This document shows positions 19,464 through 40,941 of a stretch of DNA of 64,000 bases, piece after piece. The translations under genes and the position numbers were made by a program. The notes beneath the pieces are model-generated. The model saw nothing but the letters and a program-made list of their open reading frames with translations, did not search any database and was not told the DNA's origin. The stretch is from the IMG/VR virus record IMGVR_UViG_3300031565_000002; one strand, 5' to 3'. Within the stretch, counting starts at the first letter, position 1, and the number at the start of each line of letters is the position of its first letter. This DNA comes from an uncultured virus (IMG/VR IMGVR_UViG_3300031565_000002) (taxonomy: Duplodnaviria > Heunggongvirae > Uroviricota > Caudoviricetes).

Positions 19464-19469
19464 ATATAG

Positions 19470-20507: not shown

Positions 20508-20540
20508 AAAAAAAGCCTTCTCTTTTTCAAGAGGAGGCTT
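20508..20540 (-). terminator. attenuator terminator 2
   Basis: AAGCCTCCTCTT-GAAA-AAGAGAAGGCTTTTTTT. Confidence 0.85.
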
Positions 20541-20596
20541 CTTATCTTTTTGTACTTTTATCTATTTTAGGTCAGTTTTAAGATAAAGAATCCCCC

Positions 20597-20665
20597 TCAC
20601 AGTCCAGGTTTCTGTACTGGTTGCGGCTTTACGACAAGCACGGGTTTTCTAATTATAACTGACAT
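20597..20665 (-). CDS. leader peptide 2 MSVIIRKPVLVVKPQPVQKPGL
   Basis: GGAG RBS; stop codon overlaps antiterminator; not in ORF track. Confidence 0.8.
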   Translation of the reverse strand: MSVIIRKPVLVVKPQPVQKPGL

Positions 20666-20706
20666 CACTTCTCCATTTTAATAAATAACTATTCCTAATC
20701 TATCTT

Positions 20707-20735
20707 AATATAACACGAAATACTAAAAAAGTCAA
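20707..20735 (-). promoter_or_regulatory. sigma70-type promoter
   Basis: TTGACT-17 nt-TATATT. Confidence 0.8.
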
Positions 20736-23569: not shown

Positions 23570-23641
23570 AGCGGGAAACGGGGCTCGAACCCGCAACAAC
23601 CACCTTGGGAAGGTGATACTCTACCATTGAGTTATCCCCGC
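23570..23641 (-). tRNA. tRNA-Gly(CCC)
   Basis: GCG acceptor, loop TTCCCAA, U73. Confidence 0.9.
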
Positions 23642-23684
23642 TTATTCTTTAAATTTATAACCAAAATAATCTATTTTAAAAAAG

Positions 23685-23759
23685 TACCCCCGGCAGGGCT
23701 CGAACCTGCGACCCCAACTTTAGGAGAGTTGTGCTCTGATCCTGCTGAGCTACGGGGGC
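23685..23759 (-). tRNA. tRNA-Arg(CCT)
   Basis: Loop CTCCTAA, A20. Confidence 0.9.
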
Positions 23760-23765
23760 TTAAAT

Positions 23766-23840
23766 CACCCGTGGAGGGACTCGAACCCCCGACCCCTGAT
23801 TTCGGAAACCAGTGCTCTAATCCTACTGAGCTACACGGGC
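23766..23840 (-). tRNA. tRNA-Arg(CCG)
   Basis: Loop TTCCGAA, A20. Confidence 0.9.
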
Positions 23841-25186
23841 ATTAATATTCATGTAATTTATAATCGGGAATATATTGATCTTTTCCCGTCTTCCTTTTTC
23901 CCTTATCTGCCGAATGAATCATATCTATTCTCTTCTTACCTCTTTTGGCAGATTTATTAATTCTATCTAAAGAATCACTCTCAACTTTACCCTTATCTTT
24001 ACTCATTCTATAGCATCCAACCTCTTGTCAACATTATTTCTATTTGCAAGTTTTTTAACTTCTTTATCAATGTCGTCAAAATTTACAGAGAACCTTACAG
24101 AAAAATATTCCATTATCCTATCTAATTTATCGACCCTATCTCTTAATAATTGATTCTCAGTCTGTAAACAAGATACAGTTATACCAGTAACATTAGTCTT
24201 AATCTCATCATTGAAAACAGCACCTTGATTACCTATTATATCGCCTTCAATATAAACATCCCCATTTACTCTCAAAGGGCCATTTATTCTACGTAATCTA
24301 TCGTCAATACCCCCACTAAACCCAGACTTAATATTGCTATTACTATTTGGATTCCAATAACTATTCTTTTCAAAATCTATCGGACCACCACGCTCATTAA
24401 CATTATTATAATTACAATCATCATCCAACGGACAATTTTGAGAAAGATTATGTCCCGTAAACCTACACAAATTACTCATACAACGCTACCTCTTAGAGTT
24501 ATTCCCTTTCGCATCCCCAGCATCTGACTGTTCAGCCATATGAAGTAAACGAGCAAAATCATCATCCGATAATGGGAATCCTAATTTTCCCCTTTCTTTC
24601 GCATACCCTCTAAGAACTTCCTCTGTACTACCACTCTCTCCTCTTATAAGACGAAGCAAAGAAACTTCCATTGCTGCAAGAGAAATAGCTAACTCCTTTA
24701 ATCTTTTCATCTTCATAATTATTTTGTCTGTATCCCATGCTCATTACATTCATCAAATTTAACTCTTGCAGCAACTTTCGAAGATCTCAATTTCTCTACA
24801 GATGCAATCTTTTTTTGGTCAAGCGTATCCTTTCCAAACATCATACCTTCCGGATCGTCACGATAATCCCATACTCCACCCATCGAATATTTCGCCTTCG
24901 GGTGTTCAAATGGATTCTTGTATTTTTTCGTATCTTCATCGGTTACATCATCTGGCCAATCAGCAATAACTTCTAACGCCAGACCTAACGGATGAAAAAA
25001 TAATCGGTTTGCTTCCTGCAAAAACCCCTTATTCCTAAACTCCTTAATATTCATTCTCTTAATTTTTTGTGCCATAACTACTCCCATTTATATTATAAGA
25101 TGTACACCTATAATATAACAATAAGATAGCGACTAGTAAAAAATAACGAAATTTATTTCATCATTTATGTACATTGCAAATAAAAA

Positions 25187-25260
25187 TGTCCCCATCAGGA
25201 TTCGAACCTGAAACACCTGGATTAGAAGTCCAGGATTCTATCCAATTGAATTATGGGGAC
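25187..25260 (-). tRNA. tRNA-Arg(TCT)
   Basis: Loop CTTCTAA. Confidence 0.88.
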
Positions 25261-25880
25261 GCATATCTTTTCGTCCTTGATGAATTTTTGTTTTTACTCT
25301 TATAGGTAGGTAATTGCATATCACAATTACCACAAACCACTCTGCAATTGCTGATTGCCCAGTTCGATGAATCTCCATCTATATGATCAAAGACCAATGG
25401 TACCGGTAACCATCTCCAAATTTTAATACCACAAATTTCGCATTGATGCCCCCTTAATTCTATAAGTAGTTTTTTGGCTCTACTACAATCAGAATTACCG
25501 TCTAAATTAGGAAATACACCAACATTAAGCACCAATTTTTTCCATTCACTCCGCCGATAATCATGTTGACATCTAATTTTACAAAACTTATTATTAAACG
25601 TTAAATTACCACAGAACAAGCATGAACGCCAGCGTTTTACATCTCTTATCCTATTTTTATTATTATAAGTAGATGAGCATGAAAGATCGCAAAATTTATT
25701 CATCCTTTTTTCATAAGGAAGAATAGCATTACAGTTAAGACATCTTTTCTTTAATTGGTGATATTTCTCTAATGCCTTTTTCTTTTGTCTTACTCGACAA
25801 TCATCCATAGCTTCTTTACTTTTTAAATAACCAATTCTACCGGCATCTACTCTACTAATTTTTCTCAATTTTACCGCCAT
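25251..25880 (-). CDS. HNH homing endonuclease
   Basis: DHIDGDSSNWAISNCRVVCGNCD; stop lies inside 5' end of tRNA-Arg. Confidence 0.85.
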   Translation of the reverse strand: MAVKLRKISRVDAGRIGYLKSKEAMDDCRVRQKKKALEKYHQLKKRCLNCNAILPYEKRMNKFCDLSCSSTYNNKNRIRDVKRWRSCLFCGNLTFNNKFCKIRCQHDYRRSEWKKLVLNVGVFPNLDGNSDCSRAKKLLIELRGHQCEICGIKIWRWLPVPLVFDHIDGDSSNWAISNCRVVCGNCDMQLPTYKSKNKNSSRTKRYASP

Positions 25881-26184
25881 ATCAAATATAATACTAACGA
25901 TAACCTATCTGATTCCTACACCATGACTGACAAAACTCTTCCGCTGTTAATTTTTGCAATTCTTCATCATTCCTTAATGAGATATGACCATCCGACAACC
26001 ACTTAATCGTATTAATATCAGACATACCTGTAACAGAATGATCATAAACAATAATTGCTAAACATTCATGCTTATCATCTTCAACCGGACAAACAAATGT
26101 ACCCATCTTCATTGCAATCCTCCATTGACTACAATATAACGATACAAATATGAAAGTAAAAAGGATAATACTAAAAAAGGTAAG

Positions 26185-26258
<74 letters not shown>

Positions 26259-26653
26259 GTAATATCATTTATCAAACTCTATCATGTAAGCTGTTTTAAT
26301 AGTTGTAATACCAGTTCCATCTGGATGAGGATCATGAACCATAGCCCCATTATAAAATACTACTGCATGCCCCCTATCAGAACCCCTCGGCGAACCACCA
26401 CTTACAACATAATATCCATCAACACCAATTTTATAATCAAGTATTTTTTTCTCTCCATACAATGATCCGGCATACATAAAACCATGAGGTCTAAGGACAC
26501 TACATAACGGATTAAACCATACGCCATTATTTAAATATTGAAAACCTTCAAATTCAGACAGGATGATTTCGGTAACAGATGAAATAGCAGCCCAAAAACA
26601 ATTCCCAATTATTCCTTTTGAAGGATTACTAATCACAGTCTGCATTACCGGCT

Positions 26654-27277
26654 TCATTCATCACCTAAATCTTTATATGCCTTATCAGCTATTCCCTGAT
26701 ACCATTTTCTCAGACGAGTAATACCCCACCTGACAAAATCTTTCAAAAAATTATTAAAAAGAGTCCATAAAAGCGAGAACGGCCAGTAAATAACCCATAC
26801 TGCTATACCACCCTTATGTTCCATAGCCACTGGCTTTTTAAGGTCATAAGGCACTTTCCATTCATCACGCCTATCTCTTTCAGGATTAGCATCAAATTCA
26901 TCTTTTGCCAATTTTACTTTATCTGCCCTACTATTAACATACATTATCCACTTAACAAAAGACCATATAAAGCCCATGCCAATATAACCTAACACCTTCA
27001 ATGCAACCGCAACTGGTTGCCAAATCATAAATCCAAATATGGCTAAATCACCAAAAATGAAGCCCCATACATCTAATCTCCCCATAAATTGAAGAAAGAA
27101 AAAGCATAATATAAGCGCAATTATACCAGCACCAAAACTCTCCTTCTCAACTATGAAGAAAACCCATATAATAAAAGCCAACATTGCTGCATACCAACCT
27201 GCAGCCCCAAAAACAAAAAAACCTAAAAACGCTACCCATGCCGCTCCCATATATATCCTCCTATTGCTAAAAAACAA
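26654..27277 (-). CDS. multi-pass membrane protein
   Basis: Several hydrophobic segments. Confidence 0.65.
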   Translation of the reverse strand: MFFSNRRIYMGAAWVAFLGFFVFGAAGWYAAMLAFIIWVFFIVEKESFGAGIIALILCFFFLQFMGRLDVWGFIFGDLAIFGFMIWQPVAVALKVLGYIGMGFIWSFVKWIMYVNSRADKVKLAKDEFDANPERDRRDEWKVPYDLKKPVAMEHKGGIAVWVIYWPFSLLWTLFNNFLKDFVRWGITRLRKWYQGIADKAYKDLGDE

Positions 27278-27328
27278 TACTATTATCTAGCAATAATATA
27301 TAAATCATCAGAAAAAAGTAAAATTAAA

Positions 27329-27400
27329 TAGCGCTACGGGGATTCGAACCCCGGCCGAATGACTGAGAATCACCCATCCTAACCCCTAGACGATAGCGCC
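27329..27400 (-). tRNA. tRNA-Glu(CTC)
   Basis: TCGTCTAG D arm, loop TTCTCAG. Confidence 0.9.
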
Positions 27401-28220
27401 ATAAATTTTAGAATTTTTTTCTTATCAACACTCTAACGATACCAACGAATAATCTGACTGTTAGGACAACAGGCCAGGCAATGACGAAGAGAAATTCTTG
27501 TACTTCGGAGAAATCGTAAAAATCGACTAATATTTCTTCACCCTTAACAATCGCTTTTAAAACCATACCAATAATAAGATACACTAAACTGACCGTCACC
27601 CATACCAATATGAGTTCAGCCATTATCCCCCTATTCTTTCTTTTTGCCCTCCATCGCTCTTAATGCTTTTACATAAGGGACATTATCAATATCTTCATCG
27701 GTAATTTCTTCAAGTTCATCCATAGAATCTATTTTCCCCCACCAACTCTCAGCACCATATACTACTTTATTAAGACTGGGTATTAATATCGCAGGATTAT
27801 GACCGGCAAAAGAAGTCTTTACCTTGTCCCCTTCTAATGATGCATTAATTCCAGTGGCTAATTCACCAATATAAACCCCAAGGTATGTTTTTCCATCATA
27901 CTCATTACCACAAGGTCTTATCTTAACTAATTGCCCTGGTTCACAATACCTACTATTAAGAACAGCCGTATCATCAGACTCTACACTTTTTACCCTTGAC
28001 CACCCTGCTATTTCATTTATCACCATCGCCAATATTTTCTCAATATTAAACCCTTTATCTTCGGTCCTGGCAAAACCAACCATAATAGCATCGTCAAAAA
28101 CTTCCTTCAATTCAGGAAGTTTTTCTATATCAAGATTATAGTCTTTCTTTAATCTCTCAAGAATCTGATCTACTGCCTTCTCGTCCCTTTCAATTTCTTC
28201 CTTAAACCCCATATTACTCC

Positions 28221-28952
28221 CTACTTCTTTAACTTCGCTAAAAGCCTTAATACTTCGAGATACAACCATACCATCGTAACTAATATTCCGAAAGCACAAT
28301 ACCATTCCATGTACTTCGGTGCACCCCTACTTATTGATCTCTCTATAGTGTCAAAATCAAGTATTAAATTTAAAGATGCAACAACCACGATACCTATACT
28401 GATACCAACACCAATCCATCCACCCTCATGAATATACGGAACATGTATATGAAAAATTGCTCTCATTAATATGTCGGCAATATATACAAGGCAAATTGCC
28501 CCAGTCGCTGCTATAACTCCTGCCCTAAAACCCTGAGTAGCACGTATAAGCCTCGCTTTATATGCTAATAACATTGTAATCAGTATACCAAACGTCAACA
28601 TTAATGCCTGTGATACAATACCAGGATATTTAGCATTAAAAACTGCTGATACACTCCCTAATACAACCCCTTCCAGAATAGCATAAACAGGAGATGTAAA
28701 CATTGAAATCTTTGGATTAAAAATAGTAACAATGGCAATCACAAAACCTACAAGCAAAGCGGGAATAACAAACCCTGGAAATCCATCTGTCGGAGTAATA
28801 CTCCACGCCCATCCAGCCACGACTACCAAAAGAATAGACAAAAACCCAGTCCTATTAATAGTCCCCTGCAACGTCATTTGTGTATAATTAGCTACATCGA
28901 GCCCTCTAAATCTTCTGTCTGAGAGTGCTGGATTAGATGTGCGCATTATCAC
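28221..28952 (-). CDS. Bax inhibitor-1/YccA family membrane protein
   Basis: MRTSNPAL start, YAILEG, LILDFD.IE, PKYMEWY.AFG..VT.VWLYLEVLRLL. Confidence 0.9.
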   Translation of the reverse strand: MIMRTSNPALSDRRFRGLDVANYTQMTLQGTINRTGFLSILLVVVAGWAWSITPTDGFPGFVIPALLVGFVIAIVTIFNPKISMFTSPVYAILEGVVLGSVSAVFNAKYPGIVSQALMLTFGILITMLLAYKARLIRATQGFRAGVIAATGAICLVYIADILMRAIFHIHVPYIHEGGWIGVGISIGIVVVASLNLILDFDTIERSISRGAPKYMEWYCAFGILVTMVWLYLEVLRLLAKLKK

Positions 28953-29005
28953 TCCTTTTAAATAGTTAATAAGAAACGGTGGTGGGAAATCCCACCACCT
29001 TATAT

Positions 29006-29080
29006 TGGTACGCCCGAGAGGACTTGAACCCCCGACGCGCAGATCTAGAATCTACCGTTCTGCCACTGAACTACAGGCGC
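29006..29080 (-). tRNA. amber suppressor tRNA (CTA anticodon)
   Basis: Stem GTAGA/TCTGC closing loop TTCTAGA; complete cloverleaf with CCA. Confidence 0.85.
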
Positions 29081-29083
29081 ATA

Positions 29084-29377
29084 TTATGCAAGCGGTAACT
29101 TCTTGAATACCTCCCCCGTATCTATACAGGCAATAGCAGTCAATTGGCTATGAAGATCAGGCTCATAGAACCCAACCCATTTTTTACCTTTATCGGTAAG
29201 TTTTTCTGACCATAGCAACAGAACTTTTTCATTAGGGACACCTAAATGAATTAATGTGGAATTATTCCACTCTCGATATGCATTTAAATCGCCCCTAAGA
29301 GAATATTCAGAAATCGCATGACCACCCTGTACGTTACGATAGGTTTCATCAAGATCTCTACGCACAAGCACGTACAT
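29084..29377 (-). CDS. peptidyl-tRNA hydrolase 2-like protein
   Basis: MYVLVRRDL..VQGGHA, F.EPDL..QLTAIA, KLPL motifs of the Pth2 fold; start uncertain. Confidence 0.7.
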   Translation of the reverse strand: MYVLVRRDLDETYRNVQGGHAISEYSLRGDLNAYREWNNSTLIHLGVPNEKVLLLWSEKLTDKGKKWVGFYEPDLHSQLTAIACIDTGEVFKKLPLA

Positions 29378-29669
29378 CTTCTTCTGTCTGCGAGTATTCA
29401 TCGATAATCTCCTGAATAAGGTCTTTATTAGGCTCATTCCCCTCTCTACATTTCGGTTCAATTTGCTCATAAGACCTTCCTCGCATCAGGCTATATGCAA
29501 TATGCTTATGCCTATATTCTCTCCTAAACTTTAAAAGAGCGTACTGCAGACTTCCTGCATACTCTCCTTTTTTCTGTGTATCTTTTGTCTCAATTTTTGT
29601 TTCTTTAATCTTTACCGCCATTTCCTTTAACTCTTCTTTGAGAGTCTTAAAATTTTTCTTCTTTTCCAT
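29358..29669 (-). CDS. hypothetical protein
   Basis: 103-aa ORF overlapping the Pth2-like gene; RBS within a hairpin. Confidence 0.7.
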   Translation of the reverse strand: MEKKKNFKTLKEELKEMAVKIKETKIETKDTQKKGEYAGSLQYALLKFRREYRHKHIAYSLMRGRSYEQIEPKCREGNEPNKDLIQEIIDEYSQTEEDVRACA

Positions 29670-29734
29670 GATTATATCCTTGTTTAAATTGTTGTTTTAG
29701 TTAATAAATAATCGACAATCAAGAATATAACCAC

Positions 29735-29788
29735 TTATGGCGGTTTGTATATCGTAACCTATGTAGGCGCTAAATTAATCTACAACAT
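29735..29788 (-). promoter_or_regulatory. amber-interrupted leader ORF ML*INLAPT*VTIYKPP(TAA)
   Basis: AAGGAG RBS, ATG TTG TAG ... TAG ... CCG CCA TAA, then RBS-occluding hairpin arm. Confidence 0.65.
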
Positions 29789-29857
29789 ACGATTCTCCTT
29801 ATTAATAGGGTTTTTAAAATTTTCACTTATCATTAAGTTAAATTGATTCATAGTTAT

Positions 29858-29886
29858 AATATAACAAACAAGACTAATTTCGTCAA
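29858..29886 (-). promoter_or_regulatory. sigma70-type promoter
   Basis: TTGACG-17 nt-TATATT. Confidence 0.75.
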
Positions 29887-29953
29887 TAAATTAATAACTT
29901 TTTTTATAAATACGAATTATTAACTTATTTATTTGCCATCTTTTAAAAAAGAT

Positions 29954-30028
29954 TGGAGCGGTAGATGGGACTTGAACCCACAACCATCACCTTGGAAGGG
30001 TGACGCTCTACCATTGAGCTACTACCGC
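29954..30028 (-). tRNA. tRNA-Gly(TCC)
   Basis: Loop CTTCCAA, U73, CCA. Confidence 0.92.
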
Positions 30029-30031
30029 ATT

Positions 30032-30688
30032 TTATTTAAATTGTACATTCTTTTTTATATCAAGTTTTATATTAAATTTATCAAAACCAGCAAATCTTAA
30101 CATCGCTACTTGATCAGCATCGTAATTGAGCACTCTAACAGTATCAAATATCCGAAATTTATCAGGAAATAATTTCTGCAATTTACTTGCAATTACATAA
30201 TAATCATCGTAATATTTATTAATAGCGTCTTCTTTAGGGAGATCATACTTTGGATACATAGGATCCCATTGACCATAATCATCGTAATCACCATTTTCCC
30301 AATGCTGCGATTTCCTAGATGTCCAGTGATTAAATTCTCCCCTTTCTGATTTTGTCGCCTTCATAAAACTCCTAACAACAAGGTCTTTATCTCTCTTTAG
30401 ACAGATAACCTTAAACTCAACATTACGCTTAATATCCCTATCTTCCAATTTCAAAATAGTCTCAATATTAGGCAGATGATAAAAAGATACATCGCCAACA
30501 ATAGCCCCAGGTCTGGCCAATAAATTACTGATTATCCTATACATAAATATAGGATTGGCTCTCCAACTTGTCCATGTCCGGCCATACTCATGAGAAACAT
30601 ATTTAACATCGGGCTGCTCATTCAACAATGCAGCAAGGCTTTGAGTTCCACAACGTCCGGTACCAATACCAAAAATAATTCTTTTCAA
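30032..30688 (-). CDS. sulfotransferase-like P-loop protein
   Basis: IFGIGTGRCGTQSL..LL and L.RD...VRS motifs. Confidence 0.6.
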   Translation of the reverse strand: MKRIIFGIGTGRCGTQSLAALLNEQPDVKYVSHEYGRTWTSWRANPIFMYRIISNLLARPGAIVGDVSFYHLPNIETILKLEDRDIKRNVEFKVICLKRDKDLVVRSFMKATKSERGEFNHWTSRKSQHWENGDYDDYGQWDPMYPKYDLPKEDAINKYYDDYYVIASKLQKLFPDKFRIFDTVRVLNYDADQVAMLRFAGFDKFNIKLDIKKNVQFK

Positions 30689-31045
30689 ATCTTACTCCCG
30701 TTACTTTAATTCTATCCAATGACCATATTTTTTACTGGTCATACTAAACACCCATTCCTGCCTTAACCTACATCTTAAACAAGTTCTATTCTTATTTTCA
30801 AAAACAATATAACCATAAGAATCCACAAAAGGACGACGTATCTCTTGGTGCCATTCATGTAAATTTAGTGAACAAAGAATACTTCTCCTTTTTCCATTAT
30901 TCATGTTCTCCTTATGTAACAATAAAGTTATAATGATAATGTAGATTTTCACTACTGGCTTCTAGCACGTTAGAGGAGTCACACCTCCGCTCGTTTAGGG
31001 AATCAGCACCCCGCTCTACCACCACTATAACTGCGCTATTTTAAA

Positions 31046-31119
31046 TGGGCTGTGAGGGACTTGAACCCCCGGCAACCTGATTATGAGTCAGACACTCTAA
31101 CCAACTGAGTTAACAGCCC
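31046..31119 (-). tRNA. tRNA(CAT), probably Ile2
   Basis: Loop CTCATAA, GGGC acceptor; sits in the block whose leader has ATA codons. Confidence 0.8.
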
Positions 31120-31125
31120 TAAATA

Positions 31126-31956
31126 TTAAATCAACTCCCTCGCTCCCTTGAGCATATCCCTTGTAACGCTTAAATCATTGCAATACCAAGCGTCCCACAT
31201 ATAATCTTGAATATACCTGTATGGGATATAACCATAACCATCAGCGCCCCAATTCTCTCCCCAACTATTCTTAACTTTTATAAGCCTTTTATTATCATCG
31301 TACCCACATGCACATAAAGCATGTCCGCCATAACAATATTCTGGATTCGCCGGTCTTGAAATAACGCCAGTTTTATCTACGAAAAAAATCTCTTCAAAAC
31401 AAGCAATCCCTATTACAGCCGGTGTTTTACGGAGTGCCAATAAAAGCTCATCAAGATTATTAATCCTAAAATAAGTACCAACCAAAGACCATCTAGCAAC
31501 AAGTTTTGCCCATCCACTAGGCTCACCCTTCACTTCATCAGAATAAGGCCAAGCCTTTTCGCATGGGACTCCGATACGATTCAAAACTTTCATTGCTGCC
31601 CTTATTGATGTCCCTTCTAAATCGGGCCACTCATCAATCTTTTTGCATGACCAATAAATCCAAGACTCTGATAAATCATAATACTTACCGTCTCTATGGT
31701 CAAATTTACCGGCTTCAACTTCTTCTTTATGTTCCTTTTGCTCCTGCCACTCCTTCATTGCAGCGACAGCAAACCCAACGCAACTTCCTAAACCTCCCTG
31801 ATTTTTAACGGGCGACATAAGATTGCTATGGTCAACAATAGTAGGGACATCTGAATTAAACCTACTTTTTAACTCATCAATACTGAAACTATTCAAAAAA
31901 GGAAAATCTCTCTTATCGTCAGGATCTTTCCTGAGATTTAATTTGAAATCCATCAT
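31126..31956 (-). CDS. papain-family (C1) cysteine peptidase
   Basis: NQGGLGSCVGF, GGHA, KNSWG..WG..GY. Confidence 0.92.
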   Translation of the reverse strand: MMDFKLNLRKDPDDKRDFPFLNSFSIDELKSRFNSDVPTIVDHSNLMSPVKNQGGLGSCVGFAVAAMKEWQEQKEHKEEVEAGKFDHRDGKYYDLSESWIYWSCKKIDEWPDLEGTSIRAAMKVLNRIGVPCEKAWPYSDEVKGEPSGWAKLVARWSLVGTYFRINNLDELLLALRKTPAVIGIACFEEIFFVDKTGVISRPANPEYCYGGHALCACGYDDNKRLIKVKNSWGENWGADGYGYIPYRYIQDYMWDAWYCNDLSVTRDMLKGARELI

Positions 31957-32000
31957 AGTAATCTCCCTATGTTAAATTTATCCCTTATTATAAATAGATT

Positions 32001-32269
32001 AATCGTTCTCGTAAGCGGGATTCTGTTTATACTCTTACATTTACCTAATGCCCACGACCCGTTCATTATAGCCCTGCTCACCGACTAGAACTGTTTATGG
32101 TTGCATCATCGGTAGTGTAAACGATAGACGGGTGGACTTTCATCCGGTTAGACATACCCACCACAGTCACCTGTTAGAACCAGCTTTTAAGGTATCTATC
32201 TCCTACCTTCAGCAGAGATGTCCCGACTTTCCTCCCCCGATTTAACGAAGGCGTAAGAGCGGAACGATT
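32001..32269 (-). ncRNA. rnpB: RNase P RNA (compact)
   Basis: GAGGAAAGTCGGGA and AACAGAATCCCGCTTA form P4 with bulged U; P1, P2 (CTCTTAC/GTAAGAG), P3 present. Confidence 0.88.
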
Positions 32270-32641
32270 AATCTGTATAAATATATTGTAATAACTTTTC
32301 TCTATCTAACTGTAAATCATAAATTTTAGCATTAATTACACGAATTTGATCCTCTATTTCTCTCTTCCTGCGCTGATAATATTCATTCTCACTTATATCT
32401 ACAGGTTTAATATCATCAAAATATTTAAAATACCCTCCACGCTTATCCATTAATCTAATATCAAGTCCACATCCACTTTCACTATTTTCTGGATAAAAAA
32501 TAAATGGTTGATCAAAAAACTGTATAAAAATATCACCTTTATCAAACAACCCTTCAACTGTCCTATGGGCTTTAATTGCCTTAACCTTTTTCATTATATC
32601 CCCTTACTCGTTACATCGATAATCTGTTTCATACTATTCAC

Positions 32642-33082
32642 CTAAACTAGTGAATATTTCGGTTTCATTTTATCAACAAAGAATCGGATACAAAATTCCC
32701 TTAACCCCAAATAATCTACAGGGGTTTGTATCTGTTCCATGACTAATTCACTTGGCTTTGGCTTTCCTTCACGGCATTTCTTTAAACTCCTATATGATGT
32801 TTTAGATAAATCAATTTCATACTTATCCCATATTAATTCATGTAATAAATTAGAGAATTCACTTTCATATCTCAAATGGCATTCGTGACATAAACAACAA
32901 TAATCCCACTCAAAATAATACCAATGAATTTCCCTTAATTCCTTTCTAACATCATCTCTTAATTTATTACTATAACAACTACCTATTACATGGTGCTTCG
33001 TTAATTCTTCGCAATCTTCTACTCCACAAACGCAACACCTATTCTTCCTTTTTATCTGATACCCTTTATTCTTAAACTCCAT
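32642..33082 (-). CDS. HNH-like protein
   Basis: CCVCG..LTKHHVI ... LCHECH. Confidence 0.55.
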   Translation of the reverse strand: MEFKNKGYQIKRKNRCCVCGVEDCEELTKHHVIGSCYSNKLRDDVRKELREIHWYYFEWDYCCLCHECHLRYESEFSNLLHELIWDKYEIDLSKTSYRSLKKCREGKPKPSELVMEQIQTPVDYLGLREFCIRFFVDKMKPKYSLV

Positions 33083-33273
33083 CTAATCTTTCTTCCCATA
33101 TCGTGCTTTTTTATATTTAGGAGTTGCTTTTTTAGGTTGAAGTTCATGAATACGTTCTTGCAATCTCTCAATACATGCATTAACAATCTTCTTACCTCTA
33201 CCGGCATTGTATGTCTGATGGGCTGCTTCCATTACCAAATCTGCACACTGTATGCCAAATTTCTCTCTGCGTG

Positions 33274-33594
33274 TTATTTTTTTAGAACTCTCCAATCAAC
33301 CTTATCCTTTTTATTATTGTTACACCTAAAACAGGCAACCACCAAATTATCAGGATCATATCTATCTCCACCTTTACCTAATGGTACAACATGATCCACT
33401 GTCGCAAGCTCATCTTTATTCTCTGTCTCTGCCTTTAAATTAGTTTTCCCACAATAAAAACATTCCAGAACATCAAACTGACCTAAATACTCTGACCTAA
33501 AATTCACCCATTCTTCAACTTCAAGCCGATGATATACACTGGTCAAAAGAACTAATGCTGCTAATGACTTTTTATATACGGCTCCTCGGTACAA
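33274..33594 (-). CDS. HNH endonuclease
   Basis: CFYCG, TVDHVVPLGKGG, NLVVACFRCNNNK. Confidence 0.88.
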   Translation of the reverse strand: MYRGAVYKKSLAALVLLTSVYHRLEVEEWVNFRSEYLGQFDVLECFYCGKTNLKAETENKDELATVDHVVPLGKGGDRYDPDNLVVACFRCNNNKKDKVDWRVLKK

Positions 33595-33609
33595 ACGTTA
33601 TGTTTCATC

Positions 33610-34194
33610 TCAATCTCCTTGCAATAATTCCTGACATTTTTTAAGGCATTCTTCAACTCTATCATCAAGACTCTCTGTTTTCAATGTAATTAAATGAATC
33701 GGAGGAAATAATCTAAAGATAAACTGAATCATTTGATCTGACTCATTTCTCCAATCGTCCTGAAAATGTTTATCCGGTCTAACTCCATCATCATCTGGTT
33801 TCCATAATGGAGGTAAATGAAATATAATGTCATACCTTTGAGGACAATTAATCTTATTCATCATTTTAAAAATATCATTAACATACATAGTATCTTTTAA
33901 ACTATTAACATCTCTAATTTCCATAGCATACAAAAACCCCATATGAATCGGACTATCTGTAATAGTAACATCTGTCTCTTTTGCTGGTACCACATTCTCC
34001 CATTCAAGTTGCTTTTGCATAATCTTATATTGATCAAAAACATTGTCAACAGGTCCGTGCTTCGCCAAAAACATTCTGGCATATTCTGCAACCAACTCAA
34101 CCTTACCTATCCTATCATAAGATCTAGCTGCAACACCTCTTGCCACACTCGATTTACCGGCACCTGGAACTCCAACGAAACCAATTCTCTTCAT
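33610..34194 (-). CDS. NadR-type ATPase/kinase (AAA_28-like)
   Basis: GVPGAGKS, EYAR, ITDSP, DDGVR. Confidence 0.78.
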   Translation of the reverse strand: MKRIGFVGVPGAGKSSVARGVAARSYDRIGKVELVAEYARMFLAKHGPVDNVFDQYKIMQKQLEWENVVPAKETDVTITDSPIHMGFLYAMEIRDVNSLKDTMYVNDIFKMMNKINCPQRYDIIFHLPPLWKPDDDGVRPDKHFQDDWRNESDQMIQFIFRLFPPIHLITLKTESLDDRVEECLKKCQELLQGD

Positions 34195-34213
34195 TAAATT
34201 ATCCCTAATTTTC

Positions 34214-34289
34214 TGGCTGACAGGAGAGGAATTGAACCTCCAACGACCTGATTAACAGTCAGGGGCTCTGCCAATTGAGCTACCTGCCA
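34214..34289 (-). tRNA. tRNA-Asn(GTT)
   Basis: Loop CTGTTAA, G73, CCA. Confidence 0.92.
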
Positions 34290-34546
34290 GTAATATTGTT
34301 GTAATCCTATTTATAGTTTCTTCTGAATCAAATACACACGCTCGATCTGACTGCGCAAAACATTCCAACAACCCAAAGGCTGTTGACTCTTCTCTGGTAT
34401 TAGGGAAAGGATATTCCCAATCACCAAATGTTATCTCTCCTTCATCGTAATCTTCAACATGTGAAAAAATTGTTCCAGAATCCCCATAATAAGTAACCCT
34501 TACCTTCATCTCTCATTCTTCCTAATAATATTTACATTTCAAGTTA

Positions 34547-34624
34547 TGGCTGGGGCGGTGGGACTTGAACCCACAACCTTCGGTTTAACAGACCGATGCT
34601 AACCGCCAATTGAGCTACACCCCA
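34547..34624 (-). tRNA. tRNA-Asn(GTT)
   Basis: Loop CTGTTAA, CCA; irregular D arm. Confidence 0.85.
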
Positions 34625-34779
34625 GTAAATTTATAATAGTACGGTGCCCGGATTCGAACCGGGAAAGACCATTGACCATTACCCGCACCGGTACTTTTCC
34701 TAGGTATTTTCTCAGTGCAAGCTCGTGGATTCGAACCACGCCACCATACCACAGGGAAACTATGCATGTTCCCCTAATT

Positions 34780-35067
34780 TTATAATTTTTCTTTTATTCT
34801 CCACCATTGTTTAATTGCATCAGAACTATCTAATTTCATAGCACCATTATTTATGGCAAGTTTCCTTTTCGCAGAAGTTAAATCAAAATGCCTTAACCCC
34901 TTTTCATTAATCTCATTTTTCGCTTTCAACCCTATTTTCTTTGCAAATTCTAACAACTCATCACGAGTATCGGCAAACAAATGACACATCATCTTTGCTT
35001 CACCTTTAGCCCCGACCTTTTTACTTAATAACGGATCAACATAAACCATATCACCACCTATGTTCAC
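34780..35067 (-). CDS. DUF4031-like protein
   Basis: VYVD, CHLFADTRDEL..FA..IGL, HFDLT..KR..A. Confidence 0.75.
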   Translation of the reverse strand: MNIGGDMVYVDPLLSKKVGAKGEAKMMCHLFADTRDELLEFAKKIGLKAKNEINEKGLRHFDLTSAKRKLAINNGAMKLDSSDAIKQWWRIKEKL

Positions 35068-36828
35068 CTATCTATAAAAAGAATCTTCTACTTTCGGCTT
35101 ATTGACTCTCCATTGCTTTACCTGGTATTCAGGATATCTTCTGGCTGCATTACCATTCCATGATGCGACCACTATCCTTTTTTCGGTATCTACTTCATTA
35201 ACTAATACAGAGTGCACAACCTTATGCCTAATGGTCGTATTTCCCATTCTCTGAGAAGTAACTGTCCATAAGGTCTGTCCAGGCTTAATACGATCAAAGA
35301 TTGCCATCATTTCCTCCCATTTCCTCTATCTCCCTTACAGCGTTATACAAAACTTCCCCTGCCTCATTCAATGCTTTCCTTGCCAAACATTCTGGACATT
35401 TCTGATATGGTGACGAATCATCACAATCACCTTCACAATTATCCATATCTGCATATTTATCTAAAAATTCAATTCTCTCTGCAAAATTCATACTTTACCA
35501 ATCATAATCAGTTAAATCAATATCTTCTCCACACGTACATTTAACTTTAGATATTTCACCTAACGATGTAGGCGTAAAAGAAAATGTGAGCCTGCCACCA
35601 ATAGCCCCCTGCTTCATAGGATCCCCAAAAGCACATCTTCCCTTATGCTCTTCATCCCATTCTTTAAACTTTTTCAATTGTTCTTTGTCAAGACTAAAAC
35701 TCATATTATTCTTCCTTCATTTTAACTTTTGCTTCTGTAACTATACGATAAACAGGAAATGATACTGTTTTAAATTTATCTTGAGAAAAATCTAAAACCC
35801 TAAATTTCTTATCATCACAAAATCTCAAATCTGCTATATATCCTGTACTATCCCTTGTAATCCTGATATCACTAAACGCTATTTCTTCCCTGTCTATATC
35901 TTGTTCCTTAAACAACCACACATTATTAAATGAATCTACGACCAGTCTACTTGCCCATGCAGTATCCCCGATATCAATATCACTAGCAATGCTAAATCTA
36001 TCAATATATTTTTCAGGCAACTTTTCATAACAGGCAATTAACTGATCTAGTACAATTATACTGTCAGCCGGTTCAACTTTAAGATTATTTTTAATTTCTA
36101 CTTGAGATTTATCACAAAAAGACCAACACATCGCGATAATAACCAAAACAGTCATCACCGACAAAAATCTCGTACTAAACATCGATACCTCCTACTCATC
36201 GGTTACTTCTTCTGTTTTTACCCCTTCTTTTTCATTCTCCATGTCATGTACAGCCATAAGACTCAACGTCAACAAAACAATCATACAAAGAATAATAATT
36301 ATTCTTGTCATCGGTGAATCAATATTAGGAATCATTTTTAACTCCTTAAAACGTTAATGCGCTTCGTTATAATAATTTATATACTCATCGATCCCAAAGG
36401 TCTGTTCACAGTTAGGGCAGTCCATATCAGAAGTATCTGCTTTAACTTTAAACTCATACTCACACCCAGGGCACTTTGCATCTTTAAGCCCAGCCTCACA
36501 ATCACAGCCCATTGTTACCTTACCAATAGGTTTAGGTTTCCTTACATCCATCCTTACCCCTCTTTCTACTATCTCTCGACAGTCCTTACGAAAGTCAAAA
36601 AACTTTTAATAAATTTCTTTTGAATCTTGCCTTTTTCATCATAAGCGTCTACGGGGCACATATCATCCAATTGTTCAAGTTCATGCGCCATAAATTCAAC
36701 ATACCACTCATTCCCCTGTCTATCTTTCACAATACTCATCAAATTTTCTAAAGGATCTCTACCACGAAAACAAGTAATCTTATGATTCCCCAATTTACAT
36801 GTCATACCCATCTCCAAATAAAGGTAAA

Positions 36829-36901
36829 TACCCCGTAGGAGAATCGAACTCCTGTTACATGGCTGAAAACCATGTGTCCTAAGCCACTGGACGAACGGGG
36901 C
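36829..36901 (-). tRNA. tRNA-Glu(TTC)
   Basis: Loop TTTTCAG. Confidence 0.9.
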
Positions 36902-36905
36902 AGAA

Positions 36906-36980
<75 letters not shown>

Positions 36981-37021
36981 ATTATATTAAATAACTTTAT
37001 TTTCATACAGATAAATCAAAA

Positions 37022-37093
37022 TAGCCCGTAGGAGAATTGAACTCCTGTCGCAAGAATGAAAATCTCGCATCCTAACCACTAGACGAACGAGCC
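37022..37093 (-). tRNA. tRNA-Glu(TTC)
   Basis: Loop TTTTCAT. Confidence 0.9.
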
Positions 37094-37099
37094 AAAAAT

Positions 37100-37176
37100 T
37101 GGCGGGAATGACGAGACTTGAACTCGCAACAACCGGCTTGACAGGCCGGTACTCTAACCAATTGAGCTACATCCCC
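37100..37176 (-). tRNA. tRNA-Asp(GTC)
   Basis: Loop CTGTCAA, CCA. Confidence 0.92.
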
Positions 37177-37381
37177 GAAAAGGTGGTTATATGGAAATCC
37201 CATACAACCACCGGTTTATATATAAAGGGATAATTTCCTTCTAATTATGTGCTTATTCAATCTTAACCAGAAATGTCAAAGAACGTTAATAATTTTGTAA
37301 AATTCATACTTCACCACCTTTTATAATGTTATACTATATATAATATAACAAAGTAGGTATATGAAGTAAAATTTTATCATT

Positions 37382-37410
37382 AAAAAAGCCCCATCTTTTG
37401 GATAGGGCTC
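37382..37410 (-). terminator. attenuator terminator 3
   Basis: AGCCCTATC-CAAAA-GATGGGGCTTTTTT; antiterminator GGGCTCA near 37430-37436. Confidence 0.82.
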
Positions 37411-37440
37411 ATTAATCGAATACAACATTTGAGCCCAATT

Positions 37441-37506
37441 TTAGGGTATACCTTCTCCCTCTCTATTATCATTCCGTTCAAACCTATTATTTATTAAGTG
37501 CTTCAT
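37441..37506 (-). CDS. leader peptide 3 MKHLINNRFERNDNREGEGIP
   Basis: AAGGAAG upstream; hand translation; not in ORF track. Confidence 0.78.
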   Translation of the reverse strand: MKHLINNRFERNDNREGEGIP

Positions 37507-37611
37507 ACTGTACTTCCTTTAATTTGGAGCCGGAGCCAGGAGTCTCACCTGAACGACTGTATGTGCCCATACAAGGCTTCGCATCTTGTACAGAACTCCG
37601 ACATAATTTAA

Positions 37612-37684
37612 TGGAGCGGAGGGGGCTTGAACCCCTGACCTCAACGCTGCCAGCGTCGCGCTCTCCCAACTGAGCTACCGTCCC
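37612..37684 (-). tRNA. tRNA-Ala(GGC)
   Basis: G3-U70, loop CTGGCAG. Confidence 0.9.
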
Positions 37685-37918
37685 TTAATTTCTAAAATGT
37701 TTTTCATCATACCTTGCTACTTCGTTCCATATCACCCATGATTCCTTGCCAATTTCCATAGCTGTTTCATTTACCATTCGCATAATTCTCTTCTTTTCTT
37801 CGTCGTCTCTGATGCCCCAATCTCGTAAAAGCAATTCGGTAATTCCCATTATACCAGTTAATTTGTTATTGATTCGGTGGAGACTGTCCATTACATTTCT
37901 AGCAGCATCTTCTTTCAT
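37685..37918 (-). CDS. stand-alone HisKA-like helical protein
   Basis: LHRINNKLTGIMGITELL resembles an H-box. Confidence 0.45.
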   Translation of the reverse strand: MKEDAARNVMDSLHRINNKLTGIMGITELLLRDWGIRDDEEKKRIMRMVNETAMEIGKESWVIWNEVARYDEKHFRN

Positions 37919-37995
37919 CTCTCACCTGCCTGCTAAATGTTTATGTTTGTACTTACAACAGGCACTTACATCTGGTTAATTATATTTATCCTTTC

Positions 37996-38071
37996 TGGTG
38001 GAGCGAGGGGGGATCGAACCCCCGACCTCAACGTTGCGAACGTTGCGCTCTCCCAACTGAGCTACCGTCCC
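37996..38071 (-). tRNA. tRNA-Ala(CGC)
   Basis: G3-U70, loop TTCGCAA, CCA. Confidence 0.92.
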
Positions 38072-38074
38072 ATA

Positions 38075-38150
38075 TGGTGGAGCGGAGGGGGCTTGAACCC
38101 CTGACCTGTTGGTTGCAAACCAACTGCTCTCCCAACTGAGCTACCGTCCC
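38075..38150 (-). tRNA. tRNA-Ala(TGC)
   Basis: G3-U70, loop TTTGCAA, CCA. Confidence 0.9.
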
Positions 38151-38472
38151 ATTATTCCGTCTTACAACTCTCAAAGAACCTTAATTCCCGCATTGTTAAT
38201 TCCCCCCTTCTTCGAGGATTCCCACAACACCTTACTGCTGAACATATCTTTGTAGTATTTCTAAGGTGTCTTGAGTTCTTCTCAATCAACTCTGCCGTTT
38301 CTTCCTTTGTATGTAAATCTGAACAATAAAAGAGAAATACACGCTTATAACTTTTACGTTTTCCAACTAGAAAACGCTCACGCCTATCATTTGGATGAGA
38401 CATAGTTTAACTCCTTTGCTTAAACTGTCCTACGCCATCATCCTTTCTCCTTCCTTGTTAAATTACAAAAAT

Positions 38473-39390
38473 CTATTTTAAATATTCGTATTCTACTTGA
38501 TTGGCTATTGCCTCTCCAAGGCTTCGATAATCATCAATATACTTAACCTTGTCCATCTTCTCTAACTTACTATTTATCAAACAATCAACCCTATTAAAAC
38601 TATAATTCTGTATCGCTTGCGACATATCATTTGCCAATCTCACCCTACTTGAAAGGGACATAACCCTTCCTAAACCGCCATCTATAGGGTCGGCATAAAA
38701 CAGTAAATCTGACGCATTTCCACCCTTCTTTGCCTTCTTAAAAGACATTCCCCGAAAACAATGTCCCGCTCCAAGCGACAATATATGAACCTTATTGGTT
38801 TTATCTACTGCCTTTTGAAGCCATCCTTGCCGAATTGTCTCAGTAACAGTTTCACCTAAAGGACAATTCTCATTACCGGTTCCACCATCAAGCCAAACCT
38901 GTTCAGATTCTTTGTCTACAATATGCCCGAAGTACAATGGTGCAGCGAAACTTCTGGCAATAGCATCTATTAATTTAATTTTACCATCTTTCTTTTCCCA
39001 CCCCTTAAAGAAGTGAGTTCTACCGTCAACCTTGCTAGCAGAAGTACACATAAACTTTGTAACGCAATCAGACATTAATACATCAGCGCCAACATGTTCA
39101 CTAAAAAATTCTATAAACGGTTCTCTGCTGTATTTAGGCTGCACCAATGGGATTCTCAATCTCCACTTGAACACGTCCGGAAGAACTTTTAACATAAGTT
39201 CTTCTAATCGAGTTGCATCTATCTTACCGGATGCAAGTGCTCCACAGATTATAGCACCGATGCTAGTCCCAACCATCAAGTCAAAGATCTCGTAAATTGG
39301 CTTCCCTAATAACTGTTCAATCTCCTTTAAAACTGTCATAGGGATAACTCCCTTTACGCCACCGCCATCTACTTCTAGTATCCTAATCAC
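38473..39390 (-). CDS. patatin-like phospholipase
   Basis: DGGGVKG, GTSIG, AAPLYF, DGG. Confidence 0.92.
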   Translation of the reverse strand: MIRILEVDGGGVKGVIPMTVLKEIEQLLGKPIYEIFDLMVGTSIGAIICGALASGKIDATRLEELMLKVLPDVFKWRLRIPLVQPKYSREPFIEFFSEHVGADVLMSDCVTKFMCTSASKVDGRTHFFKGWEKKDGKIKLIDAIARSFAAPLYFGHIVDKESEQVWLDGGTGNENCPLGETVTETIRQGWLQKAVDKTNKVHILSLGAGHCFRGMSFKKAKKGGNASDLLFYADPIDGGLGRVMSLSSRVRLANDMSQAIQNYSFNRVDCLINSKLEKMDKVKYIDDYRSLGEAIANQVEYEYLK

Positions 39391-39421
39391 CGATACCCCC
39401 TGATATAATGTTAAAAGGTAA

Positions 39422-39498
39422 TGGTTGGGGTGGGCAGAATTGAACTGCCGACGCCTCGGTTATCAGCCGAGTCCTCTAACCAACTGAGGTACACCCCA
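39422..39498 (-). tRNA. tRNA-Ile(GAT)
   Basis: Loop CTGATAA, CCA. Confidence 0.9.
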
Positions 39499-39591
39499 AT
39501 AACATTATTACACTTTATTTTATATCAAAGAACTATCGTGTTTTCATAATAGGGGTGGGGGGAGTTGAACCCGCCCACTGACACGGCTTAT

Positions 39592-40219
39592 CTTACCACC
39601 ATAGCTTTCGCTACCATTTCTGTTTGTGGTCTGGACTTTCCCTTGACCATATTTTCAAGAACTTAGGCCCCTCCCGTCAAGTCTCTACACCTTCCATTTT
39701 TCAGGATTGGCTCGGGATTGCCATCAGCATCACCTGTTAAAGTTTCCCCGAATTTGAGAGGTTCTACTTTCTACGTTTCCATAGAAGCACTCATATTTTA
39801 ACAACCCAATCAACAAGGAGGTTGTCTTTTGCCCATTTAACCTTACTCGACTGATTATTTAAAGGAAAATCTATACGAAGTACCATCGTTCCCTTTGGTG
39901 CTTCATTAATGTCTATAGTATAATATTCATCATTTTCATAACAATAAACGATAAAAACATCTATAAGACCATCGTAATATTTTTTATAACTTCCTTTCGT
40001 ATTAACCCTTGACGAGCATGTATTAAAGGCTACACAACCATTACCATCCAGCCTTCCTGTTTTACATTGAACTCTAAAAAACTTATGAGTTCCATCTACT
40101 AATAAATCATATGGCTGATTATCGCCAACAGGAACACTAACAACCTTACCAAGTTCCATTAGCCTAGTGATTATCTTCTGTTCGGTTAATTCTCCTTTTA
40201 CTTTTGGATTATTATTCAT
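39592..40219 (-). mobile_element. group I intron (IC3-like) with homing endonuclease ORF
   Basis: Core motifs AAATTCGGGGAAAC, AATCCCGAGCC, GTAGAGACTTGACGG, AAGGGAAAGTCC; U at 5' splice site, terminal G. Confidence 0.88.
39791..40219 (-). CDS. intron-encoded PD-(D/E)XK endonuclease (I-Ssp6803I-like)
   Basis: KGELTE, P.GDNQPYDL, RVQCKTG. Confidence 0.88.
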   Translation of the reverse strand: MNNNPKVKGELTEQKIITRLMELGKVVSVPVGDNQPYDLLVDGTHKFFRVQCKTGRLDGNGCVAFNTCSSRVNTKGSYKKYYDGLIDVFIVYCYENDEYYTIDINEAPKGTMVLRIDFPLNNQSSKVKWAKDNLLVDWVVKI

Positions 40220-40356
40220 AAGACCGCCGCTCTAACCTCACATGAGCTACACCCCCATAAATTGGAATATACAGCCACATATTCGACCATCGAATACACA
40301 ACTCACCAAACTTACTGAATGTAGCACAAATCTCATTTTCATCTCCATTTTGACAT

Positions 40357-40392
40357 AAAAAAAACTCTGTCGGGTTTTGCCTGACAGAGTTT
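40357..40392 (-). terminator. attenuator terminator 4
   Basis: AAACTCTGTCAGG-CAAAA-CCCGACAGAGTTTTTTTT; antiterminator GCCTGACAAGAG 40420-40409. Confidence 0.85.
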
Positions 40393-40424
40393 AAAATTCA
40401 TGTTTAGTCTCTTGTCAGGCCGCA

Positions 40425-40505
40425 CTATCCTCCGCCTTCTGCATTAATAGCAGCTTCATCTATAATATTAGTGCTTCTTATTATCCTGACAGTTGTTGCT
40501 AACAT
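40425..40505 (-). CDS. leader peptide 4 MLATTVRIIRSTNIIDEAAINAEGGG
   Basis: GAGGA RBS; hand translation; not in ORF track. Confidence 0.78.
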   Translation of the reverse strand: MLATTVRIIRSTNIIDEAAINAEGGG

Positions 40506-40611
40506 AAAAAGTTAATCCTCGTTTAAATCCTAGTTTAATACCTTACTTAACTATTTTACTATTATGGTTTAAAATATCGGTATTAAACCAAAAAAGTTTA
40601 TTGTTGTTCCT

Positions 40612-40640
40612 AATATACCCCTAAAACCCAAAAAAGTCAA
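40612..40640 (-). promoter_or_regulatory. sigma70-type promoter
   Basis: TTGACT-17 nt-TATATT. Confidence 0.78.
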
Positions 40641-40941
40641 CAACTTTTTAAAATTATTTTTACGGTTCATCAATAAGAGCTTTATCTTTATCGTTAATAC
40701 TATTTATAAATTTATCATTTTCAACATGATAAATTATAAATTTTACCTTACCATACCTTCTATTGGCCTCAGAAAGAGCAATCGCATGATCATCAAATAC
40801 CCCCTCTATTCTTGCCTTGCGTATCAGTAAGTACTTATTAAGATACTTCTCCAAAAATTCTTCTTCATGTTCCCGTATCCACTTTAGGTTCCTATTCGCA
40901 TCACGTGCCATAACTATCCTCCTTTTGATAAATGGAAGTTA

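Follow-up and report, generated by a model that had tools for sequence, protein, structure and literature searches.

The window, by which we mean the whole stretch of 64,000 nucleotides that was analyzed (IMG/VR record IMGVR_UViG_3300031565_000002, from an uncultured virus of the Caudoviricetes), looks like a segment of the very large genome of a soil phage. It is AT-rich, with a G+C content of 36%, and was detected in six soil metagenome DNA runs and in no run recorded as RNA. A diverged strain co-occurs in soil runs, with 21 differences in 152 bases (36500-36651) and with 10 differences and 6 gaps in 37215-37433. The protein genes in the window include those for a class II-like ribonucleotide reductase, a helicase, a DNA methylase, a TnpB-like protein and a PD-(D/E)XK homing endonuclease. 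The TnpB/IS605 OrfB-like gene (PF01385, PF07282, PF12323; 60035-61246, minus strand) lies inside the phage region.

ARAGORN found 40 tRNA genes in the window, every one on the minus strand and with small ORFs scattered between them, and 39 of the 40 were confirmed by Rfam; at the gathering score, Rfam gave only tRNA matches over the window. The array may extend past base 1 of the window. We refer to these genes as blocks A to D, each downstream of a unit of the same letter, and all the features of the units are on the minus strand. The tRNA genes of each amino acid are confined to one block except those for the Asp and CAT tRNAs, which are found in two blocks each. No gene for tRNA-Thr or tRNA-Trp was found in the window, though Thr and Trp codons occur in leaders A and D described below. 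A tRNA-His with an unusual A-starting anticodon, ATG, was called by both ARAGORN and Rfam at 3084-3157 (minus strand), beside a normal tRNA-His(GTG) at 2006-2082. ARAGORN in intron mode also reported a putative tRNA-Ala(AGC) with a 180-nt intron at 19469-19740 (minus strand), between a phosphatase gene and a tRNA-Lys gene.

Block B (23569-37176) consists of 15 tRNA genes, with small ORFs interspersed, between the strong minus-strand terminators at 37387 and 20514, and no strong terminator lies in between. As called by ARAGORN, the order of the genes is Asp, Glu, Gly, Glu, Asn, Asn, CAT, Gly, Sup(CTA), Glu, four Arg and Gly, and the anticodons are GTC for Asp, TTC (twice) and CTC for Glu, GCC, TCC and CCC for Gly, GTT (twice) for Asn, TCT (twice), CCG and CCT for Arg, CAT, and the suppressor CTA. 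This agrees with the list in a preliminary description of the region, which had been made from the letters of the DNA and its ORFs. From leader B downstream to the Arg tRNA genes the distance is 11-14 kb, with about 25 ORFs in between, and the suppressor-type tRNA with the anticodon CTA is at 29006-29080 (minus strand).

The preliminary description took the CAT tRNA to be likely Ile2. This is not supported as stated: the structure of the block B CAT tRNA has no initiator features, and the tRNA may be either Ile2 or elongator Met. The ATA codon is better served by a tRNA-Ile(UAU) gene of block A (40256-39550, minus strand), upstream of leader B. A 628-nt group I intron interrupts this gene after U34. 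The intron matched Rfam RF00028 with 36.5 bits (E 6e-7), which is below the gathering score, and the exons (40256-40220 and 39591-39550), when joined, were called as tRNA-Ile(TAT) by ARAGORN. An ORF of 142 aa in the intron (40219-39791, minus strand) is PD-(D/E)XK (PF11645) and homing-endonuclease-like, and the intron core is similar to stretches in Agrobacterium phage Atu_ph07 and in uncultured phages of 0.6-0.7 Mb.

Leader ORF of unit B and its codon content

Upstream of block B, at 37441-37506, lies an ORF of 21 codons followed by TAA, MKHLINNRFERNDNREGEGIP, which we call leader B. Its codons are ATG AAG CAC TTA ATA AAT AAT AGG TTT GAA CGG AAT GAT AAT AGA GAG GGA GAA GGT ATA CCC TAA, and the use of AGG, CGG, AGA, GAA, GAG, GGA, GGT, AAT, GAT and ATA in the preliminary description is therefore exact at 37506-37441. 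A Shine-Dalgarno (SD) sequence, AAGGAAG (37513-37519), is placed 6 nt before the ATG. Its duplex with the anti-SD is worth -6.3 kcal/mol, compared with a median of -4.7 over 65 long ORFs and of -2.8 over random ATGs, and 11.5% of random ATGs have an SD as good.

The amino acids Asp, Glu, Gly, Asn and Arg, all of which have tRNA genes in block B, account for 13 of the 20 codons after the Met codon, whereas they make up 31.7% of the codons in the long ORFs of the window (binomial P = 2.2e-3). When leader B was compared with short ORFs, by which we mean the 454 ORFs of 15-45 codons that begin with ATG in any frame of the window, none of the others reached this fraction. Furthermore, when sets of five amino acids were chosen among those that have a tRNA gene in the window, only 13 of the 8568 sets fitted leader B equally well. 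The residues that do not belong to the block are at codons 2-4, 9 and 21, and codons 5-20 contain 13 block residues and two Ile out of 16. Most of the sensor codons are present just one to four times each.

The preliminary description went further and proposed that the leader matches individual isoacceptors. AGA, AGG and CGG occur once each in leader B and correspond to the Arg anticodons TCT, CCT and CCG, so the claim that the three Arg codons are the three Arg anticodons of the block stood. The probability of this triple under the Arg codon usage of the phage itself is 0.041. The Glu codons GAA, GAA and GAG likewise have the block anticodons TTC, TTC and CTC as counterparts, but of the Gly codons only GGA and GGT are used and GGG is absent although a tRNA-Gly(CCC) gene is in the block. 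Thus, with P = 0.041 and GGG/CCC not sampled, the codons of leader B are no more than suggestive of a match to individual isoacceptors of block B.

Terminator and antiterminator of unit B

An intrinsic terminator, terminator B, is present at 37382-37410, and the tRNA-Asp gene starts 206 nt beyond it. It has a 10-bp stem with 5 G-C pairs and the loop CAAAA, arranged as GAGCCCTATC-CAAAA-GATGGGGCTT (37410-37386) and followed by a T-run, and the hairpin has a stability of -14.8 kcal/mol. Four nucleotides past the stop codon of leader B is the sequence GGGCTCA (37430-37436), which we call region 2, and TGAGCCC (37405-37411), region 3, has bases in common with the 5' arm of this terminator. The pairing of these two sequences that had been pointed out earlier was borne out (37436-37430 with 37411-37405), and the resulting antiterminator hairpin GGGCUCA:UGAGCCC has a stability of -13.9 kcal/mol. 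The antiterminator and terminator B are mutually exclusive as the 6 nt GAGCCC are common to both. When the 100 nt upstream was shuffled 500 times with the dinucleotides preserved, 6 of the 500 shuffles paired with the 5' arm of the terminator as well as unit B does.

The folding of the RNA was examined in several states. In a transcript that ends ahead of the 3' arm of the terminator, the minimum-energy fold has GGGCUCA:UGAGCCC. In the naked full-length B RNA the best fold, at -29.6 kcal/mol, consists of the terminator and a long-range helix, formed by the SD/AUG region on one side and by the antiterminator loop with part of region 2 on the other, and when the antiterminator was forced the energy was -27.0 kcal/mol. 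The SD/AUG helix could act as a region 1. In an equilibrium stall model, which combines equilibrium folding with a 29-nt ribosome mask, the antiterminator was the best fold for unit B only with stalls on codons 5-8 and 11, and it was never the best fold for unit C. Compared with its shuffles, the complete B leader has a fold of only modestly greater stability (z = -1.6). Since thermodynamics alone is indecisive, the case for a switch rests on the co-transcriptional, that is, truncated, folds.

Promoters and the source of the transcript

A promoter at 37342-37370 had been noted earlier, and it holds up as a sequence match: the promoter-like site, TTTACT-17-TATATT with a TG, has 9 of the 12 consensus positions and lies downstream of terminator B. 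Its -35 TTTACT is one base off the TTGACT of the strong promoters at 40640 and 20735, its -10 is also that of the 40640 and 20735 promoters, and its -10 region GTTATATTA is also found in the strong promoters at 20735 and 4690. If active, this site would give block B transcription that is independent of an attenuator. In addition, strong leaderless promoters are placed directly before tRNA-Gln(CTG) (15576) and tRNA-Pro(GGG) (12901) inside block C. Because of the downstream promoter-like site and these leaderless tRNA promoters gating would not be exclusive, and attenuators can only modulate expression.

No strong promoter was found within 3 kb upstream of leader B, the nearest being the one at 40640, and between 40364 and 37387 there is no strong minus-strand terminator. 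RNA would reach leader B from upstream, most likely from the 40640 promoter, 3.1 kb away, by way of the Ile/Ala block. After tRNA-Ala(GGC) (37612-37684) comes a tRNA-like element (37525-37602) that adjoins the 5' UTR of leader B and was called by ARAGORN at a lowered threshold only. It has a 7-bp acceptor stem, a T arm with a non-canonical loop, an encoded CCA and an odd anticodon loop, and Rfam gave no match to it at E<=1. The end of this element at 37525 may yield a processed 5' end.

Two other features lie between the terminator and block B. Just past the promoter-like site is a 14-codon ORF, MNFTKLLTFFDISG (37307-37263, minus strand), with an SD of -8.5 kcal/mol that is the strongest of the region; despite this SD being stronger than that of leader B, its codons do not match block B. 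A perfect 13-bp hairpin followed by UUUUC (37212-37182, minus strand) ends 5 nt ahead of tRNA-Asp, and its motif TTGTATGGG is found again in the tRNA-like element (37566-37574) and before tRNA-Phe (3959-3967).

The arrangement around terminator B could be read as an ordinary operon boundary, in which the terminator at 37410-37382 ends the Ile/Ala unit, the site at 37370-37342 starts the next one, and the ORF and the 7-nt complement are fortuitous. The position of the promoter-like site directly downstream of the terminator fits this, as do the lack of a strong promoter directly upstream of leader B and the preference of the equilibrium folds for the terminator in most states, and a good SD is a common feature of short ORFs, being present in 18 of the 63 in the intergenic regions. 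We consider it unlikely, and the reason is that three independent coincidences would be needed at one place, namely, the composition of the leader (P 2.2e-3), the pairing (6/500) and the SD (11.5%); it is also countered by the other units and by a control terminator, which are dealt with in the following sections.

Alternatively, the stretch may give rise to a small protein, or to an RNA that is small or processed, with an independent role that has no connection with the tRNA genes that follow. Its boundaries, a possible processing site at the CCA element (37525) and the terminator, would suit such a product, and the full-length fold is fairly structured. Nevertheless, we regard this as very improbable since no Rfam match was found at E<=1, the peptide is low-complexity and hydrophilic and has no recognizable feature, and the partition of codons and tRNAs over the four units would be left unexplained.

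Units A, C and D

The same combination of features was found in three other places in the window, and in units A, C and D a promoter is present upstream. Unit A (40364-40640) is made up of a promoter, a leader, regions 1 and 2, and a terminator. The promoter is TTGACT-17-TATATT (40640-40612) and the leader is MLATTVRIIRSTNIIDEAAINAEGGG (40505-40425). Region 2 (40419-40409) pairs with an arm of the terminator (40389-40365), and region 1 (CTGTCAGG, 40492-40485), which is within the leader ORF, pairs with region 2. Downstream of the unit are the genes for tRNA-Ile(UAU), tRNA-Ile(GAU) and three tRNA-Ala. Leader A ends in TAG, and readthrough of this TAG would add six codons across region 2 up to a TAA at 40406-40404 (40427-40404). 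In the window as a whole, reading TAG as sense lengthens the minus-strand ORFs of at least 100 aa modestly, from 15,738 to 17,785 aa.

Unit C (20514-20735) has a promoter (20735-20707), the leader MSVIIRKPVLVVKPQPVQKPGL (20665-20597), region 2 (20598-20592) and a terminator (20538-20515). Ten tRNA genes follow, and their amino acids are limited to Lys, Val, Pro and Gln. Leader C has four Pro codons, of which no two are alike (P 0.046), and its five Val codons span all four Val codons (P 0.06). The gene after terminator C starts 27 nt further on without an intervening promoter, which means that terminator C must be passable if this gene and the tRNAs are expressed from 20735. In units A and C alike, nothing but the leader and the terminator comes after the strong promoter.

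Unit D (4035-4690) has a promoter (4690-4662), then two tRNA-like elements, a 41-codon leader (4218-4093), region 2 (4119-4112) and a terminator (4059-4036). The tRNAs downstream of it are Phe, Ser, Ser, His, Tyr, Asp, His, Leu, Met, Leu and Cys. A fifth candidate with a terminator near 2720 was rejected because the ORFs upstream of it lack an SD and the codon match was poor (7/20).

This end of the window contains further tRNA-like sequences. The motif GACCTTTGRKGCATACAT occurs five times within 2985-4604 (minus strand), where 0.01 would be expected, and each copy heads a tRNA-like sequence, one of which (4532-4598) scored 27.6 bits on the tRNA model, just below the cut-off of 29. At 2990-2860 (minus strand), a T arm, the 3' strand of an acceptor and CCA come ahead of the matching 5' strand of the acceptor, that is, in permuted order, and the permuted-tmRNA model gave weak matches of 23.4 bits (3264-3330) and 17.1 bits (2877-2941).

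Joint analysis of the four units

The numbers of codons in each leader that match its own block were 9/25 for A (P 2.4e-3), 14/21 for C (P 1.25e-5) and 21/40 for D (P 0.023). Leader C came at the top of the 454 short ORFs for its own block, and the match of unit D is weak because 92 of the 454 short ORFs equal it. Every one of the four leaders shows its highest enrichment for its own block. Taken together, 55 of 106 codons matched their own block, compared with 26.7 +/- 5.2 under the null. In 200,000 permutations of the amino-acid labels among the blocks 55 was never reached, the maximum being 52 (P < 5e-6), and the true assignment of leaders to blocks was the best of the 24.

The pairing with the terminator arm was examined in the same manner as in unit B, and it was equalled by 2 of 500 shuffles in unit A, 10 of 500 in unit C and 3 of 500 in unit D. 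At a control terminator after an ordinary gene (51676), 489 of the 500 shuffles paired equally well. An enumeration of intergenic ORFs that was made independently of the attenuator hypothesis gave 63 ATG ORFs of 12-60 codons, and in 18 of them the SD reaches -5.5 or better. The four leaders, and no others among these 18, have their ends 54-83 nt ahead of the T-run of a strong terminator. These results bear on the operon boundary explanation. It would require the combination of features seen in unit B to be repeated by chance in three other units, each with a different amino-acid set that fits its block, and at the control terminator there is no such pairing.

The joint results also bear on a different explanation, that the switch is real but senses general translation capacity or transcription-translation coupling, with the match to the blocks being a by-product of duplication history or composition. 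In keeping with this, most codons are present in just one or a few copies, so that specificity would be weak, and the naked RNA folds as the terminator together with a helix in which the SD and AUG are hidden, so loss of initiation alone would alter the outcome. Against it, the four leaders have four nearly disjoint sets of amino acids and each is most enriched for its own block, and the assignment was the best of 24 with a permutation P < 5e-6. A partition of the amino acids is not required for a general sensor. We think it quite unlikely that a general sensor accounts for the four units.

Proposed attenuator mechanism

Unit B has a short ORF with a ribosome-binding site, codons enriched for the amino acids of block B (13/20 for D/E/G/N/R), a terminator between the leader and the genes that would be regulated, and an antiterminator that is exclusive with the terminator and can be masked by a ribosome at the stop codon. 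Based on these findings we lean toward the view that leader B is a multivalent ribosome-mediated transcription attenuator that gates readthrough into tRNA block B. For the four units taken together we hold the attenuator reading with higher confidence than for unit B alone. The attenuator of the preliminary description is retained in its SD, its ORF, the antiterminator next to the stop codon, the terminator and the match to the amino acids of the block, but the isoacceptor match is only suggestive and the identification of the CAT tRNA as Ile2 is not supported.

In the attenuator that we propose, the leader would be translated by a ribosome that is coupled to RNA polymerase. When decoding is fast, the ribosome would arrive at the UAA and mask GGGCUCA, which starts 4 nt further on. 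The free UGAGCCC would then form the terminator with GAUGGGGCUU and transcription would stop at 37382-37387. When Asn, Arg, Glu, Gly, Asp or Ile(AUA) codons delay the ribosome, GGGCUCA would capture the nascent UGAGCCC, the terminator would be blocked, and RNA polymerase would continue into the tRNA genes in the order Asp-Glu-Gly-Glu, then Asn and then Arg. The net effect would be that the supply of tRNAs feeds back negatively on the transcription of their genes. By the same logic, blocks A (Ile/Ala), B, C (Lys/Val/Pro/Gln) and D (Phe/Ser/His/Leu and others) would each be metered by the speed at which their own codons are decoded.

A broader idea, which we offer tentatively and hold to be possible rather than probable, is that the four codon-partitioned attenuators, each of which would sample the synonymous codons for its own block, form a cascade that acts as an autonomous, isoacceptor-resolved tRNA homeostat with each block transcribed on demand. 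Such a homeostat would sense the depletion of host tRNAs or their cleavage by an anticodon nuclease and answer with the missing tRNAs.

Relatives of the locus

Searches for related loci were made with the neighboring proteins and with the DNA. Neither the patatin-like neighbor protein nor the 245-aa phosphatase that adjoins unit C had a relative in the viral contigs. The best ribonucleotide reductases in the viral contigs had 61% and 58% identity and were not syntenic, with no tRNAs nearby. In the metagenome contigs 13 loci were found for this protein, the best at 61% and none with tRNAs; the genome contigs gave only cellular ribonucleotide reductases at about 30%, and the best match in GenBank phages was 32%. 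The DNA from 36000 to 40500 matched GenBank phages only in tRNA and intron pieces. Two promoter patterns were found at 51 and 12 loci in the viral contigs, and a comparable unit was present in 0 of the 12 that were inspected. The tRNA arrays of two distant relatives have plain promoters and no leader/terminator unit.

Comparison with known attenuators

Leader-peptide attenuation is the textbook mechanism for operons of amino acid biosynthesis and for one synthetase operon. The multivalent leader peptides of enterobacteria are those of thr, with Thr and Ile, and of ilvGMEDA and ilvBN, with Ile, Leu and Val. Like unit B, these have a short leader, translated in their case and predicted to be so here, with several kinds of regulatory codons, a stop codon that adjoins the antiterminator strand, and mutually exclusive hairpins of similar stability, and a stalled ribosome causes readthrough, as is predicted here. 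They differ in that the thr and ilv leaders control biosynthetic enzymes whereas the phage units precede tRNA genes and small phage ORFs. Unit B also samples five or six amino acids, mostly with 1-4 codons each and with varied synonyms instead of runs, and it is inside a long phage transcript as one of a series of four. The 1:2, 2:3 and 3:4 logic of trpL, hisL, pheL and leuL is shared by the phage units, and unit A, which has a region 1, has four regions like trpL. These leaders, however, use tandem runs of one codon, and the sensor codons of the phage leaders are mixed and dispersed. No match to the Rfam families of amino acid operon leaders (Trp, His, Thr, Leu and others) was obtained in 37300-40700 at E<=1.

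The pheM leader of pheST is an attenuator that controls an aminoacyl-tRNA synthetase. It is like the phage units in that leader-peptide attenuation acts on a gene for translation and charged tRNA provides the feedback, which for the phage is a prediction. The target of pheM is the mRNA of a synthetase for one amino acid, whereas the targets of the phage units would be the tRNA genes themselves. T-boxes also make a choice between terminator and antiterminator that depends on the status of a tRNA, as predicted here, and control genes of aminoacylation. A T-box, however, binds the uncharged tRNA directly and without translation, whereas unit B has a leader ORF and the T-box model had no match in the window at the Rfam gathering score or in 37300-40700 at E<=1.

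In the portions of the literature reached by a full-text search we found no paper in which tRNA genes, whether of phages or of cells, are controlled by leader-peptide attenuation. A possible Phe-rich leader at the tRNA-Phe genes of E. coli found no support at pheV in K-12, where the upstream region has a promoter only and no leader. The mechanism that we propose is a known one; the target, tRNA genes, and the multi-block layout would be new with respect to the literature searched.

Significance

With four units and nearly disjoint sets of amino acids in one genome, this phage is a clean experimental case. If the attenuator reading is true, the leaders would be compact natural sensors of codon-specific translation speed, and the finding would bear on how transcription is organized in long operons of mixed tRNA genes and mRNA. 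It would also bear on how a phage copes with a host tRNA pool that is mismatched or under attack and on why large phages carry nearly complete sets of tRNAs. The tRNA genes of the phage would then not be constitutive spare parts but a regulated supply that reads the decoding speed of the ribosome.
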